DNA of 64,000 nucleotides from Syntrophomonas sp. DTU018. GTDB lineage: Bacteria; Bacillota; Syntrophomonadia; Syntrophomonadales; Syntrophomonadaceae. Shown here piece by piece: positions 6,161 through 59,501 of the stretch. The DNA is taken from contig LFSR01000042.1 of assembly GCA_001513155.1 (NCBI GenBank), positions 16,961-80,960 of the forward strand, given 5' to 3'. Numbering within the stretch: the stretch's first letter is position 1; each line of letters opens with the position of its first letter. A program made the position numbers and the translations under genes. The notes below the pieces were generated by a model. It ran no database searches. It was not told the DNA's origin and worked only from the letters and a program-made list of their open reading frames with translations.

Positions 6161-6452
6161 GGTTGCTGTGAAAGCTGTGAATAAGAGATTGCCACGCCCC
6201 GTCGGGGCTCGCAATGACAATTAAGAATTCCTTTCATAGCGATGACAGGCTTAAGTTTTCGTTTATCGTGGCCTGTTATTCAGGTGACAATTGCGAGCGC
6301 AGCGAAGCAATCTCTAACGATGCCTGCAAATATGTGAACGAGATCGCCACGGCACTATGTGCCTCGCGATGACACATAAGAAAGCTTCTCTGCGATGCCA
6401 CGGCACTTCGTGCCTCGCGATGACACAAAAGGACGCCATTTTCACAGCAATA
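6161..6452. repeat. Repeat cluster A: four ~35-bp core units of the GAGATYGCCACG...CTCGCRATGACA family plus accessory modules
   Basis: Units at 6185-6219 (+), 6283-6315 (-), 6340-6374 (+) and 6391-6424 (+). Outer inverted TTGCTGTGAAA modules lie at about 6163-6173 and 6439-6449. 6239-6277 is the exact reverse complement of 28295-28333. Confidence 0.9.
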
Positions 6453-6471
6453 ACAGGTGATTTAACAGTGA

Positions 6472-6497
6472 CAAGGACGGGATTTCGACCCGTCCTG
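6472..6497 (-). terminator. Hairpin downstream of the NIF3-like gene
   Basis: AGGACGGG-ATTTCGA-CCCGTCCT 27 bp after the stop; no clear T-run. Confidence 0.35.
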
Positions 6498-22811: not shown

Positions 22812-23055
22812 AAAATAAAAAACTTTCGCCCAAGGGACGAAAGTGTTTTTCCGCGGTACCACCCTAGTTAGCCTGAAAGCTCAGCTTTCAGGCTCCCTCT
22901 TCTCCGGTAACGGCGGTAACCGATAGAACCTACTGCTAGTTCAGTTCCCAGCTCCCAGGTGAATTCACCTGATCCTATCCCTGGCTGTACTTCCAGTCGC
23001 GGTACAGCCTCCCTGTAGGGCATCCTATCAGGCTACTTGTCCTGTTCATCGCATT
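22812..23055 (-). promoter_or_regulatory. T-box riboswitch leader, Phe specifier (UUC)
   Basis: Minus strand has a stem I start at TGCGATGAACAGGACAAGTAG. The specifier loop reads GAA-UUC-A (UUC at 22963-22961) and the T-box is GGGTGGTACCGCG (22852-22865). The terminator is ACTTTCGTCCC-TT-GGGCGAAAGT followed by TTTTTTATTTT. Confidence 0.9.
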
Positions 23056-23232
23056 TATAATATGAGACCTATTGAGTAATCAACATCTTATATAACAGAT
23101 AATATATGATGCAACCAGAACTCTCAAATAGCTGCCACAAGGCCTGGGCTGTGTCCACGCTAACGCCCACCCTTCCACCGTAATGTCTGGGGTCGGAATT
23201 AAAGTCATTATATCATACCGGTAAATTCTCCA

Positions 23233-25573: not shown

Positions 25574-27484
25574 TTAATCGTAAGTTTTCTCCTTAATCTC
25601 TGTGGTAATCTTGGCAATAAAATCAGCCACGGGCACTGCACCCAGGTCACCCTGCTTGCGGTGGCGTACTGCCACTGTTCCCTGTTCAGCTTCTTTATCT
25701 CCAACAACAAGCAGGTAGGGTATTTTCTGCAGCTGGCCTTCCCTGATCTTATAGCCCACTTTCTCACTGCGGCTGTCCAATTCTGCCCGGATACCAGCCT
25801 CTATTAGTTTATCAAACACTTTTTGCCCATATTCATGATGGCGTTCGCTGATGGGCAGAACCCTGGCTTGTACCGGAGCCAGCCAAACCGGAAACGCCCC
25901 GGCAAAGTGCTCGGTCAGAATACCAATGAACCTTTCAATACTGCCGTATATCACCCGGTGGATCATTACGGGACGATGTTTCTCTCCATCCTCGCCTATA
26001 TAGGTAATGTCCAGGTTCTCCGGCATCAGAAAATCTAACTGAACTGTGCCGCACTGCCAGGTACGGTCCAGGGAATCCTGGAGATGAAAATCGATCTTGG
26101 GGCCGTAGAATGCACCGTCGCCCTCATTGACTTTATATTCCATGCCCTTTTCCTGCAGAGCCTGAATTAAGGCGTTGGTAGCCAGTTCCCAGATTTCGTC
26201 TGATCCCATGGCCTTTTCAGGTTTAGTGGACAGTTCCACATGATAGGGGAAGCCAAACAGCTTGTAAAAACGGTCTATCAGGTCAATAACACCTTTTATT
26301 TCATCAATAATCTGCTCAGGTAGCATGAAAATATGGGCATCGTCCTGGGTAAAGGCTCTAACCCTCATCAGCCCATGTAATACCCCGGATTTCTCATGCC
26401 GGTGCACCAGTCCCAGTTCACAATAACGCAGGGGCAATTCCTTGTAGCTGTGCAAAGACTGCTTGTAAGCCAGGAGCGCCCCCGGGCAGTTCATAGGCTT
26501 AACTGCATAATCTTCATCATCTATTTTGGTAAAATACATGTTTTCCTTATAATGATCCCAGTGACCGGATCTTTCCCACAATTCCCGGTTAAGGATAATC
26601 GGGGTTTTTATCTCCTGGTACCCCGCCTTGCGATGTTCTTCCCGCCAGAAGTTTTCCAGTTCATTGCGCAATATCATGCCCTTGGGCATGAAGATGGGGA
26701 ATCCCGGACCCTCATCAACGATGGTGAACAAGCCCAATTCCCTGCCCAAACGGCGGTGATCACGCTTTTTGGCTTCTTCCAGTTTGTTAATGTAGTCATC
26801 CAGCTGGGCTTTCTTGGGGAAAGAAGTAGCGTAAATCCTTTGCAGCATCGGATTTCTCTCATCCCCTCTCCAGTAAGCCCCAGCCAGATTCATCAGCTTA
26901 AAAGCTTTGATGCGGCCAGTGGAAGGCAGATGAGGCCCCGCGCACAAGTCGGTAAATTCACCTTGCTGGTAAATACTTATAACTGCATCTTCAGGCAGAT
27001 CCCTTATCAGCTCAACCTTATAATCCTCGTCCCGCTCTTCAAAAAACTTTATAGCCTCATCCCGGGGCAGTTCCCGGCGAATAATAGGCAGGTCTTCCTT
27101 GATGATTTTATCCATCTCCGCTTCAATGGCCGCAAAATCATCAGGAGTAAAAGTATGTTCCCCGTCAAAATCATAATAGAAACCTTTATCGATAGCCGGA
27201 CCAATAGCTAATTTGGTATCCGGCCACAGTCTCTTAACCGCCTGGGCCATTACGTGAGCCGAGGAATGTCTGTACACGGAAGCCCCGCGGGGATCATCAA
27301 ACTCTAATAGTTCTAAAGTGCCATCCTTTTCAACAGGACGGTTCAGGTCAGTAAGCTCGCCATTGAATAACGCTGCTACTGCATTTTTAGCCAGCTTGGG
27401 ACTTATGTCCTCCGCCACCTGCATTAATGTTGTTCCGGCAGGGTACTCCCGCACGCTTCCGTCTTGCAAAGTTATCTTCGCCAT
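25574..27484 (-). CDS. thrS: Threonine-tRNA ligase
   Basis: TGS domain, editing-domain HSSAH motif and class II core; 636 aa. Confidence 0.97.
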   Translation of the reverse strand: MAKITLQDGSVREYPAGTTLMQVAEDISPKLAKNAVAALFNGELTDLNRPVEKDGTLELLEFDDPRGASVYRHSSAHVMAQAVKRLWPDTKLAIGPAIDKGFYYDFDGEHTFTPDDFAAIEAEMDKIIKEDLPIIRRELPRDEAIKFFEERDEDYKVELIRDLPEDAVISIYQQGEFTDLCAGPHLPSTGRIKAFKLMNLAGAYWRGDERNPMLQRIYATSFPKKAQLDDYINKLEEAKKRDHRRLGRELGLFTIVDEGPGFPIFMPKGMILRNELENFWREEHRKAGYQEIKTPIILNRELWERSGHWDHYKENMYFTKIDDEDYAVKPMNCPGALLAYKQSLHSYKELPLRYCELGLVHRHEKSGVLHGLMRVRAFTQDDAHIFMLPEQIIDEIKGVIDLIDRFYKLFGFPYHVELSTKPEKAMGSDEIWELATNALIQALQEKGMEYKVNEGDGAFYGPKIDFHLQDSLDRTWQCGTVQLDFLMPENLDITYIGEDGEKHRPVMIHRVIYGSIERFIGILTEHFAGAFPVWLAPVQARVLPISERHHEYGQKVFDKLIEAGIRAELDSRSEKVGYKIREGQLQKIPYLLVVGDKEAEQGTVAVRHRKQGDLGAVPVADFIAKITTEIKEKTYD

Positions 27485-27512: not shown

Positions 27513-28121
27513 CTAGTAAAACAGTATCATAATAACCATTTGCACTAAACCAATAATAAACCCCAGGACCCCGCCCAGGATCTCAATAGAGCGCAATTCT
27601 GTGGAAGCTACTCCTCGCACCATTTCTTCCAGTTGATCCAGGTCAAACTGGTTGATTTTATCTTCTACTATCTGCTTTATCTGAATCTCGGAGGTTAAGT
27701 ATTCCCGGACTGATTCTACCGCCTGGCTGATGATCTGACCGGCTTCCTGCCGTACCACCTTTTCCAAAGTATCACCAATCAGCTGTATAACCTTTCCAGG
27801 AATAATTCGCGGCAGCATACTGTCCAGCTTGGTCCGCATTACCTCGCTTACGGCAGCAACTAATCGCTCTCTTACTTCCGGGGTATTGACTTGGTCTATT
27901 ACTTCATCCAGGGACAGTAATTGCTCTTCAACCAATTGGCCTACATTGGCGGCAATATCGGCTTGTCTTTTCGGCAATACTCCCTGTAATGTAAAAAGGC
28001 CCAGATTAACAGGCTGTTTTGGCCAAAAGAGCAGTCGTATCGCCACTACATTAGTTATGTACCCAATTAATGCACTAATTAAGGGCAATGTCAGTAAAGC
28101 GTACACTTCTGCATCCACCAA
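27513..28121 (-). CDS. DUF445-like membrane protein
   Basis: GYITNVVAIRLLFWP N-terminal motif. TTG start with weak RBS; 28 nt upstream of thrS. Confidence 0.6.
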   Translation of the reverse strand: MVDAEVYALLTLPLISALIGYITNVVAIRLLFWPKQPVNLGLFTLQGVLPKRQADIAANVGQLVEEQLLSLDEVIDQVNTPEVRERLVAAVSEVMRTKLDSMLPRIIPGKVIQLIGDTLEKVVRQEAGQIISQAVESVREYLTSEIQIKQIVEDKINQFDLDQLEEMVRGVASTELRSIEILGGVLGFIIGLVQMVIMILFY

Positions 28122-28214
28122 TCTAATTTTACCTAATGAATATAGCAGATTTTGCTGTCACCCGCAATCACACCAGCCCTTTCTCCATGAAAAAAGGCTG
28201 CCTTGCGGCAGCCC

Positions 28215-28527
28215 CAGACTGTAAAAGAAGTCTGTTAGCGGTTCGACGTTCGAGATTGCCACGCCCCTCCGGGGCTCGCAATTGTCACCAGTAGAACAGG
28301 CCACGATAAACGAAAACTTAAGCCTGTCATCGCGAGGAGCGAAGCGACGTGGCGATCTGTTAACTCACACCGTTAGTTGCCATAGAGATTGCCACGCGCT
28401 ACGCGCTCGCAATGACACAATTGGGAGCTATTTTCACAGCAATGACACATAAGATGGCCTTTTGGTATGTCATCGCGAGGAGCGCAGCGACGTGGCGATC
28501 TCTTTTAGCAACTTTTTTGACACTCTC
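28215..28527 (+). mobile_element. 313-bp ORF-less element (expanded copy) flanked by a 20-bp duplicated hairpin
   Basis: Termini are CAGACTGTAAAAGAAGTCT ... TTTTTTGACACTCTC. Core units lie at 28252-28288 (+), 28325-28358 (-), 28385-28417 (+) and 28468-28502 (-). Flanking direct repeats AGGCTGCCTTGCGGCAGCCC occur at 28195-28214 and 28528-28547. Confidence 0.85.
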
Positions 28528-28565
28528 AGGCTGCCTTGCGGCAGCCCGGTATTTATGCTGCAATT

Positions 28566-29483
28566 TTAGGGTTGGGTGTTTTTGTTCAGGTGTTTGCGGC
28601 AGCGCTCGCATCCGCTGCACATGCGAATTTTATCTTTAAATACTCTTTTAATAGTCTCTACTGGCTCGTTGCCCAATTCCGCCACATTATGCAGTATAAT
28701 GCGGCGGGGAGAGATGGTTATCAATATACTGATCAAAACGTCGTCAAAATTGATTTCATTTAACAGCATGTCGTCCAGATAATAGCTCATATAGTTATCT
28801 TCAATCTTGATACCCTTTCCGTCCCACATGTTAAATACGCCATTTTCATCCATCATAATATTCACTTCTTGGATTTTGGGCACCTGGGTATCTACAAAAT
28901 AGCGCAGCAGAGTTACAAAGTCGTTGTATTCCTTTTCATTCTTCAGTTCTTCCATGGCCAGTTCTACAGCAAAGCGAATCTCAGTCAGGTAATCTTGCAG
29001 GCAAAAGTTTATGAATCCTTCCACAACCAACAGCTTATTATCATGAATGTAGTCCAAAACCCGGTGGGCAATCTTGTTTTTGCGGCCGTAGTTCATCAGT
29101 AAATTCAGGCTTTCATTTTCATTGCACCGGTTTAGGAACTGGACCGCCTTATCATATACAGTACGCTGTTCTTCCCCCGAGAGGCCCCGGCCAGATTTGC
29201 GGATTTCCTTTTTCACCAGCGTACTTTCCCATTCCAATAAAATGTGCTCTGCAATTAATTCCGACAGTTGATGTTTGAAGATATAAACAATATCTTCATT
29301 ACGAAAAATCTGATTATCATGATTTCCCCGTAATTGTATATCATAGGCTTCTCTGCCGTCTTCCAGTTGCTTTGACAGCATTGAAACGGAATAACCCTGC
29401 TCGCGGATCCATTTAAAACGCTGACTGATCATCTCAGGAAATGCAGTACCACTGGCCGTAGTTATTCGTAAATCATAGATCAT
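28566..29483 (-). CDS. ytxC: Sporulation protein YtxC-like
   Basis: Position upstream of thrS as in Bacillus. ATG 29483 is preceded by AGGAGG. Family assigned by eye. Confidence 0.6.
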   Translation of the reverse strand: MIYDLRITTASGTAFPEMISQRFKWIREQGYSVSMLSKQLEDGREAYDIQLRGNHDNQIFRNEDIVYIFKHQLSELIAEHILLEWESTLVKKEIRKSGRGLSGEEQRTVYDKAVQFLNRCNENESLNLLMNYGRKNKIAHRVLDYIHDNKLLVVEGFINFCLQDYLTEIRFAVELAMEELKNEKEYNDFVTLLRYFVDTQVPKIQEVNIMMDENGVFNMWDGKGIKIEDNYMSYYLDDMLLNEINFDDVLISILITISPRRIILHNVAELGNEPVETIKRVFKDKIRMCSGCERCRKHLNKNTQP

Positions 29484-29735
29484 ATAACGGCCTCCTACTC
29501 GTAGAGTTAGTTTATTATATGTGAGGCCAAAATTCATTATTCAAACCATCTATTGCTTGATATAGCGCTTTTCCTGCATTCTTCGCCCCTGCCTCACTGA
29601 TCGGGTTCTTGGTATTTTATGCAAGAGCACAGTCAGATGTTGCTCCACTTTACTTATGGCATCAATTCCTTAAAATGGTTGTATACAAATTTAACAACTT
29701 ATGAGGGAGAGGGATGGCAAAAGTTGAGAAATCCA

Positions 29736-30686: not shown

Positions 30687-30694
30687 TCCCATAA

Positions 30695-30745
30695 AAAAGC
30701 CGATCCTAGATCCAGCTTGTGGTTAGGATCGGCTTTTCGTTTTGT
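30695..30745. terminator. Bidirectional terminator between acyltransferase and csp
   Basis: AGCCGATCCT-N17-AGGATCGGCT with A-run before and TTTCGTTTTGTT after. Confidence 0.75.
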
Positions 30746-30753
30746 TAACAAGG

Positions 30754-30957
30754 TTACATAACTTCCACATTGGAAGCTTGCGGTCCCTTGGGACCAGTCA
30801 CCACCTCAAACTTAACTCTCTGCCCTTCATTGAGGGTTTTATAACCAGTGCCCATTATAGCGGTGTGATGTACGAATACATCATCTCCCTGTTCTGTTTG
30901 GATGAATCCAAAACCTTTAGCTGCATCAAACCATTTAACTGTACCGTACAAAGCCAT
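30754..30957 (-). CDS. Cold-shock protein (CspA family)
   Basis: [15 protein letters not shown] (RNP1) and VFVHH (RNP2); 67 aa from ATG 30957. Confidence 0.95.
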
Positions 30958-31122
30958 CACTCCAATGTAATAAAACTTCATTAATATCTTGCCCGGTGGA
31001 TATCAGTCTATGATAGTAAAACACTGCTTGCAATTCCAAAATTATTGCTAAATAAAATTTTCAGTACAACTTATGCAAAACATAAAAATGTCCATAAATA
31101 GAGCGGGGTTCCAAACCCCGCT

Positions 31123-31274
31123 CAGACTGTCAAAGAAGTCTATTAGCGGTTCGACGTTCGAGATTGCCACGCCCCTCCGGGGCTCGCAATGACACATAAG
31201 ATGGCCTTTTGGTATGTCATCGCGAGGAGCGAAGCGACGTGGCGATCTCTTTTAGCAACTTTTTTAACACTCTC
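31123..31274 (+). mobile_element. 152-bp ORF-less element (archetypal copy) flanked by a 22-bp duplicated hairpin
   Basis: Termini are CAGACTGTCAAAGAAGTCT ... TTTTTTAACACTCTC. Inverted core units lie at 31160-31194 and 31215-31249. Flanking direct repeats GAGCGGGGTTCCAAACCCCGCT occur at 31101-31122 and 31275-31296. Confidence 0.9.
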
Positions 31275-31348
31275 GAGCGGGGTTCCAAACCCCGCTGTTA
31301 CAACTTTGGCATCTGCATCTGTTATTAATTCCAGAGGAAACCCGGCTA

Positions 31349-32491
31349 TTACCCAAACAGACTGAGGAAAAATCCGGCGGCAACTGCTGATCCTATAACC
31401 CCTGCCACATTGGGGCCCATGGCATGCATCAAGAGGAAGTTGCCTGGATTAGCCTTCTGCCCTTCTATCTGAGATACGCGAGCAGCCATGGGTACAGCGG
31501 ATACACCTGCAGATCCGATGAGAGGATTAACTTTTCCACCCGTCAGTATGTACATCAGCTTGCCCAGCAATACTCCGCCAGCGGTACTGAACATGAAGGC
31601 CAGCAATCCCAGGCCTATTATTTTGAGGGTTTCAGGCCGCAAAAAGGTTTCCGCTACGGCAGTGGCTCCCACCGTGGTGGCCAGAAAGATGGTTACGATA
31701 TTTATCAAAGCGTTTTGGGCAGTCTGGCTGAGTCTTTCTACTACTCCGGATTCCCGGAAAAGATTTCCCAGCATCAGCATACCGATAAGAGGTGCTACCG
31801 ATGGCAAAAGCAGGCATACTACAATAGTAACAATAATCGGGAATACAATTTTTTCAAGTTTGGAGACTTCCCGCAACTGAGTCATTTCCACTTTTCTCTC
31901 TTTTTCCGTAGTCAGCAACCGCATAATAGGCGGTTGAATCATGGGGATCAACGCCATATAAGAATAAGCGGCAATAGCTATAGCCGGCAGCAATTCCGGA
32001 GCCAGCTTGCTGGTCAAGTAGATAGCAGTCGGGCCGTCGGCTCCCCCTATAATACCAATGGAAGCCGCCTCTTTGGGATCGAAACCTAATAGAAGGGCTA
32101 CAATAAATGCAACGTATATGCCCAGTTGGGCAGCAGCTCCCAAAAACAGGCTGGAAGGTCTGGCAATCAGAGGGCCGAAATCGGTCATGGCGCCAATGCC
32201 CAAAAATATCAGGGATGGGTAAATCCCCAGTTTAACCCCTTGATAGAGATAATAAAGAAGTCCGCCAGCATGGCCATCTGAAGGCGGAGCCATAAGGTTG
32301 GCCATAGGCAGGTTAGCCAGCAGCACCCCAAAGGCGATGGGCAATAACAGCAAGGGCTCATACTTCTTCACGATAGCCAGGTAAATAAGTACACCAGCCA
32401 CGCAGAGCATAACAACTTGCTGCCAGCTCATAGAGGGGAAGCCGGAATCATACCATAGTTTTAAAAGGATTTCCATTACAGAAATAGACAT
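31349..32491 (-). CDS. oadB: Na+-translocating decarboxylase beta subunit (OadB/GcdB/MmdB family)
   Basis: Polytopic membrane protein with the IIGGADGPT motif. Confidence 0.9.
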
Positions 32492-34991: not shown

Positions 34992-35019
34992 CAAAAAAAG
35001 CGGGGCTGTATACCCCGCT
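34992..35019 (-). terminator. Terminator after tRNA-Val
   Basis: AGCGGGG-TATACAG-CCCCGCT followed by TTTTTTT on the minus strand. Confidence 0.85.
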
Positions 35020-35034: not shown

Positions 35035-35109
35035 TGGTGGGCCGTACAAGATTCGAACTTGTGACTTCTTCCGCGTCAAGGAAGCACTCTCCCACTGAGT
35101 TAACGGCCC
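35035..35109 (-). tRNA. tRNA-Val (anticodon GAC), CCA encoded
   Basis: Hand-folded cloverleaf. Acceptor GGGCCGT/ACGGCCC, D stem ACTC/GAGT, anticodon stem CTTCC/GGAAG with loop TTGACGC. T stem ACAAG/CTTGT with loop TTCGAAT, discriminator A, CCA. Confidence 0.95.
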
Positions 35110-39229: not shown

Positions 39230-39250
39230 AGGGGGGCTAACCGCCCCCCT
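39230..39250 (+). terminator. GC-rich hairpin after the MCP gene
   Basis: AGGGGGGC-TAACC-GCCCCCCT; no T-run. Confidence 0.4.
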
Positions 39251-39265
39251 CAAATTATGAATAAA

Positions 39266-39330
39266 GATGTTAAAAGAGATCGCCACATTGCTGAGTTCCT
39301 CGCGATGACACAATCGGAGGCCATCATATG
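39266..39330 (+). repeat. Solo half-copy of the repeat element (one core unit plus partial linker)
   Basis: GTTAAAAGAGATCGCCAC-ATTGCTGAGT-TCCTCGCGATGACA (unit 39276-39310) then GGCCATCATATG. This resembles the R-end half of the 152-bp element in reverse orientation. Confidence 0.7.
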
Positions 39331-48184: not shown

Positions 48185-48277
48185 AAGATCGTTCAAAGCG
48201 CTAGCGATCTTCATATGAGATTGCCACGCCTTTATCGCTCCTGTTAAGTGGGAGCTTTGATAAAGGCGTGGCAATCT
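48185..48277. repeat. Two hairpins derived from the repeat family between convergent genes
   Basis: The first is AAGATCGTT-N9-AGCGATCTT (48185-48211). The second is a perfect 19-bp stem, AGATTGCCACGCCTTTATC ... GATAAAGGCGTGGCAATCT (48218-48277), with an inner GCTCC/GGAGC stem. It is followed by GTTATTTTA. Confidence 0.8.
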
Positions 48278-48283
48278 GTTATT

Positions 48284-59032: not shown

Positions 59033-59259
59033 GTCCCTAAGTTGCCGAAACTCCGGGCAGTTGCCGGCAGGAAGCAGGATTTATAATGGCAAGTCTGCAA
59101 AAAAACAAAGGGATAGGTTGTAAAGACAGGCCTTCTGATAGCAGTACAGGAAATCTCAAAAGTAAAAATTGAATTTTGCAGAGAAGATAATTAGGGCATG
59201 GTTCGAAAAAAGGGATTAAAGGGCTCAAAAAAAGCTGCCCCTTGTTTAAGAGGCAGCTT

Positions 59260-59412
59260 GAGAGTGTCAAAAAATTAGCTAAAAGAGATCGCCACGTCGC
59301 TTCGCTCCTCGTGATGACATAACCAAAAGGCCATCTTATGTGTCATTGCGAGCCCCGGAGGGGTGTGGCAATCTCGAACGTCTAACCGCTAAAAGACTTC
59401 TTTGACAGTCTG
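59260..59412 (-). mobile_element. 153-bp ORF-less element (second near-identical copy) flanked by a 28-bp duplicated hairpin
   Basis: The reverse complement differs from 31123-31274 at about 8 positions. Core units lie at 59285-59319 and 59341-59375. Flanking direct repeats AAGCTGCCCCTTGTTTAAGAGGCAGCTT occur at 59232-59259 and 59413-59440. Confidence 0.9.
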
Positions 59413-59501
59413 AAGCTGCCCCTTGTTTAAGAGGCAGCTTATCGAATACTAAGATAGTATATAAAAGGAAACCGGAGTTACCCTTGGGTATCCCGGCGGA
59501 C

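Follow-up and report, generated by a model that had tools for sequence, protein, structure and literature searches.

Bacterial MITEs such as Correia/NEMIS, RUP and Nezha are short, non-coding and multicopy, carry terminal inverted repeats (TIRs) and target-site duplications (TSDs), are polymorphic for presence and absence, and occupy intergenic, terminator-proximal positions. The duplications of known MITEs are short and of fixed length (2-10 bp), and the direct repeats that ISfinder gives for the IS1182 family range from 0 to 60 bp. Two members of the IS1182 family, IS1272 and TnSha1, insert into terminator hairpins that have no sequence consensus, do so in both orientations, and hit the same hairpin repeatedly (PMC4923244), and the duplication of a whole stem-loop has been modelled as pathway b of Wan et al. 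(PMC5678879). IS1272 and TnSha1 themselves remove the hairpin partly or entirely, without duplicating it, so that whole-hairpin duplication is a predicted, not a documented, outcome for this family.

The repeat family described here, found at the ytxC gene of Syntrophomonas sp. DTU018, resembles the MITEs in all of these traits and has in common with the IS1182 family that stem-loops are targeted by structure, in both orientations and more than once (PMC4923244, PMC5678879). It differs from IS1272 and TnSha1 in that the entire hairpin is duplicated instead of deleted, and from known MITEs in that the duplication measures 17-43 bp and has the length of the target stem-loop. We consider it likely, with a probability of about 0.72, that the ytxC locus holds a non-autonomous, MITE-like element that inserted into the ytxC terminator stem-loop with a structure-sized TSD, was mobilized in trans by an IS1182-family enzyme, and had acquired an extra 161 bp before insertion.

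The locus lies in a 64-kb window (the whole stretch of DNA analyzed, 64,000 nucleotides of contig LFSR01000042.1), where the genes for YtxC (28566-29537), a DUF445 protein (27513-28121) and ThrS (25574-27484) are all on the minus strand. The window contains two exact copies of AGGCTGCCTTGCGGCAGCCC, at 28195-28214 and 28528-28547, and allowing up to three mismatches gave no third match there, with none expected by chance. On the minus strand, the copy at 28528-28547 is the ytxC terminator stem-loop proximal to ytxC, and the copy at 28195-28214 is the same stem-loop in distal position, followed by a T6 run (28195-28190) and predicted to be the working terminator. Between them lies a body of 313 bp without credible coding capacity (28215-28527, plus strand; here called E2), which begins with the left TIR CAGACTGTAAAAGAAG (28215-28230, plus), with a small hairpin AGACT..AGTCT inside it, and ends with the right TIR CTTTTTTGACACTCTC (28512-28527, plus; reverse complement GAGAGTGTCAAAAAAG). 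E2 aligns with a 152-bp copy elsewhere in the window, its left 68 bp with 31123-31190 (repeat family D6, 97% identity) and its right 89 bp with 31186-31274 (repeat family D4, 98% identity); what E2 has beyond the 152-bp form is 161 bp, at 28283-28443. The first-pass annotation had described this locus, between ytxC and DUF445-thrS, as an expanded copy of the 152-bp element with a 20-bp hairpin duplication; its coordinates are correct throughout, the gene coordinates and the alignments bear out its placement and its account of the expansion, and the hairpin duplication is not only real but proves to be a TSD by the rule that the whole family follows.

Two sister copies in the window make the nature of the flanking hairpins clear. 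E1 is the 152-bp element (31123-31274) and lies between two exact 22-nt copies of the oadB terminator hairpin GAGCGGGGTTCCAAACCCCGCT (31101-31296, plus), while E3 is a 153-bp element (59260-59412) between two exact 28-nt hairpins (59232-59440, minus, in the opposite orientation). The hairpins around E1, E2 and E3 are unrelated in sequence, which marks them as parts of the targets rather than of the element. A diverged empty E1 site, with one hairpin downstream of oadB, is present in L120. At ytxC, no element is present in relatives with 78% and 69% YtxC identity, whose single hairpin is followed by a T tract; the orthologous empty sites are those of L237/L238 and L239, with a single hairpin in both L237 and L239. 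These single-hairpin relatives, together with the empty sites at other loci, identify the 20-bp repeat as a TSD of the complete ytxC terminator stem-loop.

Around E1 we made some further observations. A hairpin at 34998-35019 resembles the E1 target hairpin (77%), and a tRNA gene lies at 35038-35109 on the minus strand. In the relative with 85% YtxC identity (L117-L119, 1533-4400), genes for PadR, an AAA-ATPase and VWA/CoxE stand between oadB and a cold-shock gene; they are absent from this position in the window (30690-31350) and in L120.

The same rule holds well beyond the window. A metagenome scan with the left end and first unit as the query returned at least 114 stretches, most of which come from digesters and bioreactors. 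Besides the three copies in the window, the hairpin rule is followed by at least 48 others from related digester metagenomes. The elements are 114-374 bp long, non-coding and, with at least 51 distinct insertions in related contigs, multicopy, as MITEs are. Among the matches listed, those with both ends recovered represent 51 distinct target hairpins without shared sequence, and the direct repeats, 17-43 bp long with a median of 25, are in each case the element's own target hairpin (26 of the 51 exact, the others with 1-5 differences). All but one of the 51 hairpins fold at -8 kcal/mol or lower, compared with 2% of random 24-mers, and in the exact cases the repeat boundaries are 0-1 nt (2 nt at the most) away from the stem foot. 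With respect to the T tract, the elements show no preferred orientation (17:16 among the matches listed). Five contigs hold exact empty sites for three filled sites, over 72-75 nt with zero mismatches and with one hairpin each: L125 for the L152 element, L172 for L184, and L147, L180 and L188 for the 310-bp long form in L182. One hairpin in the empty sites and two in the filled ones is what a TSD predicts, and the empty sites rule out an origin of the hairpins within the element or by local tandem duplication; as presence/absence pairs, they fit insertion and also precise loss by recombination between the hairpin copies.

The ytxC terminator has been entered more than once. In relatives with 85% (L117) and 81% (L120) YtxC identity, the hairpin is occupied as well. 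The L117 element is of type B, with a 10-nt gap between TIR and first unit and a right end in ...GACACGCTG (the type B right end is also given as ...GCTTTTTTGACACGCTG), and its ends are identical to those of L235 at 120 of 120 positions and to those of L176 and L151 at 119 of 120; the L120 element has a similar start, and its contig stops inside the element. E2, on the other hand, is of type A: its gap measures 21 nt, its right end is ...GACACTCTC, and it shares 97-98% identity with E1 and E3. The difference in type between L117 and E2 indicates that the orthologous ytxC terminator was hit independently by two subfamilies. Orthology of the two elements, which their matching unit order could suggest, was rejected, as they belong to different subfamilies that are each near-identical within their own lineage. 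Judged from these sequences, the ytxC terminator is a repeatedly hit target, which is the hot-spot behavior described for TnSha1 (PMC4923244).

After insertion, one full target stem-loop stands on each side of the element. Such a product would result from two strand transfers at the two feet of a hairpin or cruciform, with a stagger that would be set by the size of the structure and not by a fixed protein ruler, and gap repair would then copy the entire stem-loop, which would account for duplications of 17-43 bp without a preferred orientation. A Cas1- or casposase-like integrase could in principle do something similar, since in CRISPR spacer acquisition staggered attacks at the borders duplicate a palindromic repeat, Cas1-Cas2 prefers cruciform borders, and the product has the same geometry of repeat, insert and repeat, here with a palindromic repeat of 17-43 bp. 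We nevertheless regard such an integrase as extremely improbable, because the insert carries transposon-type TIRs that resemble IS1182 inverted repeats and the duplication varies in length with each target, whereas that of casposons is fixed at about 14-15 bp. No cas1 gene was noticed near any copy. A class C group II intron, which has ribozyme domains, sits in a fixed orientation downstream of a hairpin and makes no duplication, was also considered and rejected: there was no Rfam match at E <= 10, the orientation ratio is 17:16, and the hairpin is duplicated.

We favor instead an IS1182-family DDE transposase that would act in trans, an assignment based on the matching termini and on the structure-based choice of terminator hairpins in that family. 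The TIRs of the element are imperfect and 16 bp long (CAGACTGTCAAAGAAG against GAGAGTGTTAAAAAAG, 12/16) and are kept across copies in the two subfamilies; for the family as a whole we write the pair as CAGACTGTCAAAGAAG / GAGAGTGTCAAAAAAG. These ends were compared in terminal register with the inverted repeats of IS1272 and five other annotated IS1182-family plasmid elements (L240-L245). Over the 16 positions on which the similarity rests, the type A right end agrees with the ISBce1 inverted repeat GAGGTTGTCCCAAAAG at 12, with that of an IS1182-family element of Lactiplantibacillus plantarum (GAGGCTGTGACATAAG) at 11, and with that of IS1272 (GAGTCTGGGACATAAA) at 9, and the type B ends agree with IS1182-family inverted repeats at 8-11. 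The 16-bp inverted repeats of IS1272, ISBce1 and ISClbu1 and those of our element share the pattern GAGnnTGTnnnAnAAG, and a small subterminal hairpin is common to the element and to all compared members of the family. The interiors differ: the annotated IS1182 insertion sequences that we examined lack the 35-nt palindromic units described below, whereas the non-coding interior of the element is built from them. A duplication that equals the stem-loop hit may be a natural case of what has been modelled for IS1182-type enzymes, of which the literature searched gave no documented example.

Some of the compared elements have suggestive surroundings of their own. The inverted repeats of ISBce1, ISClbu1 and the L. 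plantarum element extend outward into A-rich flanks, and the first 7 nt of the ISBce1 inverted repeat can pair with upstream sequence as a hairpin; these elements, too, may lie inside palindromic targets.

Neither the window nor 1.9 Mb of related loci, which are short stretches around elements, yielded an autonomous copy or a transposase of the IS1182 or any other family. Searching the sampled DNA by tblastn with six IS1182-family transposases gave no match, and no autonomous element emerged in the sampled loci from hairpin direct repeats 0.45-6 kb apart or from left ends without a nearby right end. Inverted pairs of TIR motifs 0.7-4 kb apart yielded one case only, with MCP, UPF0014 and ABC genes, and near-identical open reading frames in different contexts were housekeeping genes only. 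A cognate autonomous insertion sequence with the same termini, which one looks for behind a MITE, was therefore not seen in the sampled loci, a weak negative from a biased and incomplete sample.

Not every copy shows the simple arrangement. Some elements, such as those in L178 and L185 (317 bp), are bordered by two different hairpins, and in L207 (120-3828) two outward-facing ends surround MCP, UPF0014 and ABC genes. This suggests recombination between copies at different sites, leading to deletions, inversions and composite-like structures.

Family members are built internally from a palindromic unit of 35 nt, GAGATYGCCACG-variable tip-CTCGCRATGACA, arranged in one or two doublets, and the extra 161 bp of E2 are best understood in these terms. 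On the plus strand, core unit a (GAGATTGCCACG-CCCCTCCGGGG-CTCGCAAT, 28252-28282) lacks its final GACA and is followed by the block at 28283-28443 (plus), which comprises linker L2, unit b, linker L4, unit c, linker L3 and GCAAT. By alignment, unit b lies at 28325-28359 (minus), unit c, with the tip CGCTACGCG, at 28385-28417 (plus), and unit b' at 28468-28502 (minus), beyond the block; GCAATGACA, a 3' unit remnant at 28439-28447 (plus), forms the right junction. GCAAT stands at 28278-28282 and at 28439-28443 and so bounds the block. The two further units and the two GCAAT copies that the first-pass annotation had reported are thus present. The block supplies the second inverted-unit doublet of E2, the long form being made of two such doublets and the short form of one.

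That annotation had left it between a nested insertion and a recombination product, and the second reading is the better one. A nested insertion would make the block a separate mobile element, 156 bp plus a 5-bp GCAAT duplication, inside unit a of a 152-bp copy. The GCAAT on both sides and the two units within the block agree with this, as do pieces of the block that occur without terminal repeats, in the window at 6185-6455, in L129, L208 and L224, and in L220 at 12716. At other loci, though, the block comes with its junctions: L144, L182 and L196 hold elements of 304-310 bp with the E2 architecture and both long-form junctions, CTCGCAAT/TRTCACC and TTTTCACA/GCAATGACA, and the exact empty sites of the 310-bp copy in L182 indicate that the long form moves in one piece. 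An absence of independent copies had been named as what would speak against the first-pass reading; such copies exist, in L159 and in L220, where an element at a different locus (1361-1735), flanked by a palindrome of its own, has the block at 95.7% over all 161 bp. Unit c and its linker recur in L018, L129, L141 and L220, and a scan of viral contigs for the block linker gave no match.

Nor does GCAAT look like a mark of insertion. The junction module TTTTCACAGCAAT recurs 45 times in varied surroundings, in some cases as tandem repeats of 30-nt period, which identifies GCAAT as the 3' part of the unit motif GCAATGACA, and its reading as a 5-bp target duplication is not convincing. As the block also has no terminal inverted repeats of its own and its parts recur in several different combinations, a nested insertion at ytxC is unlikely, while an ancient nesting in the founder of the long subfamily remains conceivable. 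Most likely, the block came with the element and arose earlier by recombination between units and linkers at the shared GCAAT(GACA). Either form may be ancestral, since a deletion between the two GCAAT motifs would restore the short form exactly.

Related arrangements occur elsewhere in the window. An array at 6185-6455 (strand not assigned; repeat families I6, 65 nt at 92%, and D3, 42 nt at 83%) has four to five units with linkers and no terminal inverted repeats, contains both E2 block junctions, one of them inverted, is bordered by inverted copies of TTTCACAGCAA, and is followed by a terminator-like hairpin (about 6476-6496). A solo core unit with a degenerate tip (39276-39310) begins about 25 nt past a G/C-rich terminator-like hairpin, GGGGGGCTAACCGCCCCCC, and the region 39231-39310 has neither terminal repeats nor a duplication. 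At 48213-48282, a 24-nt inverted repeat has arms that begin with the 5' half of the unit (GAGATTGCCACGCC...), are 92% complementary and enclose a spacer of 22 nt; here the foot of the unit is part of another palindrome. In all, core units in the window start at 6185, 6340, 6391, 28252, 28325, 28385, 28468, 31160, 31215, 39276, 59285 and 59341.

The unit itself, AGATYGCCACG-tip-CTCGYRATGACA, combines an invariant foot with a tip that is variable yet complementary. Mismatches in the tip are balanced between G.T and A.C (10 against 14, and 5 against 6), which argues for a palindrome at the DNA level and rules out selection on the unit as RNA. It is often paired with the variant GTCATTGCGAGCGAAGCGAAGCAATCTC (in L001-L116 and in the window). 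When one genome per species was scanned for AGATYGCCACR-N7-15-CTCGYRATGACA, at least 116 stretches were found, and hosts among the matches listed include Dehalococcoidia, Oscillospiraceae, Flavobacteriia, Helicobacter, Rickettsiales, Patescibacteria, Nitrospirota, Planctomycetota and more. The TIR CAGACTGTCAAAAAAG stands beside the unit in few of these loci, among the matches listed L060 and L085, both Oscillospiraceae, so that the unit is far more widespread than the element family. These two metagenome-assembled genomes belong to another order of Clostridia; CAGACTGTCAAAAAAG lies at 1305 in L060 and at 4340 in L085, where it adjoins a hairpin, and in both the unit that follows it is opposite in orientation to that of the Syntrophomonadaceae family.

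Palindromic units of this kind call to mind REP sequences, and it could be proposed that our units correspond to REPs and their doublets, together with the outer flanks, to REPINs, all moved by a RAYT HUH (Y1) transposase. In favor of this, each unit is an imperfect palindrome of some 35 nt whose foot is conserved and whose tip varies but stays complementary; the units lie outside genes, frequently form inverted doublets, and are assembled into mosaic arrays joined by conserved linkers. Their balanced tip mismatches are those of a DNA-level palindrome, and no transposase gene lies nearby in the loci examined. REPINs, in contrast, bear a GTAG or CGTC tag, make no target duplication, as expected of HUH transposition, and are lineage-specific in those described so far, whereas our unit ends are untagged, every copy of the element has its duplication, and one unit sequence extends across phyla. 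Adding to this the DDE-type TIRs that match IS1182, and that the main text of two REP surveys does not contain the unit strings, we judge mobilization by a RAYT to be highly unlikely and keep to the IS1182-type enzyme.

Attempts to link the unit to a gene or to a described sequence met with little success. An all-versus-all BLAST of open reading frames from the 116 loci and a Pfam search of 150 neighboring small ones gave no enriched gene. Four-helix-bundle 23S_rRNA_IVP frames occur in five unit loci from different phyla (L055, L071, L090, L096 and L111), and small GIY-YIG frames in three (L008, L027 and L103; that of L008 overlaps the unit); both are too few for an association. In the full-text literature the unit strings matched PCR primers only, and blastn of E1 against plasmids returned a single unit match, in Novosphingobium. 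Searching Rfam with the whole window at gathering scores and with the locus at E <= 10 gave no family for the element or the unit, the remaining hits being noise (isrD on the terminator, and a long-hairpin miRNA model that scored 25 bits where its gathering score is 110). The 35-nt unit may be the recognition module of an undescribed mobilization or DNA-handling system rather than a passenger. Taken together, the broader proposal that a transposase lets structure set the spacing of its cuts and that the unit is a recognition module of such a widespread, undescribed system can be put forward only tentatively, and we think it rather doubtful.

What the insertion would mean for transcription can be read from the two hairpins. 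On the minus strand, the terminator scan reports only 28215->28194, with a 9-bp stem and the tail TTTTCATGGA; as the first-pass annotation had stated, a T run follows only the distal hairpin, which retains TTTTTT, and the bases after the proximal hairpin are GAGAGTGTC... and not T residues. Transcripts of ytxC probably run past the proximal hairpin, now without a U tract, and end at the distal copy, and the ytxC 3' tail would thereby gain about 330 nt of highly structured sequence compared with relatives without the element. Between the distal hairpin and DUF445-thrS lies a promoter-like TTGCGG-17-TATATT with TGn (28139-28167, minus), whose function is suggested by its conservation in the window, L117, L237 and L239, with or without the element; a simple consensus scan missed it because its -35 hexamer has only 3 of 6 matches. 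DUF445-thrS would thus keep its own promoter downstream of the element, and thrS expression is unlikely to depend on the element. The first-pass annotation had placed E2 on the path of any ytxC read-through into thrS; given the retained distal T tract and this conserved motif, a regulatory role of E2 for thrS is unlikely. That thrS has no T-box was correctly noted, the sole T-box in the window, at 22830-23058, not being upstream of thrS. This leader (134 bits, minus) probably precedes pheS, by synteny with L117.

A cis-acting regulatory or stabilizing RNA that is selected at this locus, as a ytxC 3' untranslated region or as a barrier or attenuator before thrS, might still be imagined, as the position between ytxC and an essential operon invites it and E2 folds very stably as single-stranded RNA, into two long hairpins that each pair two inverted units (z = -10.2). 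Close relatives, however, lack the element at this site or have the other subfamily there, copies lie behind unrelated genes and in both orientations, wobble pairs show no strand bias, and Rfam offers no match. We accordingly give this possibility very little credence; any RNA effect is a by-product of the insertion.

Our results place the ytxC copy as an ordinary member of a repeat family, and what looked like a nested block is a feature of its subfamily. The interest of the family lies in the structure-sized duplication and in the widely distributed unit, and the element is probably an IS1182-mobilized MITE that targets terminator hairpins. The family offers dozens of natural whole-terminator duplications with exact empty sites and a stem-loop of any size, and with this wealth of natural examples, the structure-directed targeting that has been proposed for IS1182-type transposases can be tested directly. 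The unexplained range of the 35-nt unit across phyla merits a study of its own. In Syntrophomonadaceae genomes, the family accounts for a class of duplicated terminators that annotation otherwise misses, and since every insertion strips the terminator of the upstream gene of its U tract and adds a structured tail of 150-330 nt, it may reshape 3' ends genome-wide.
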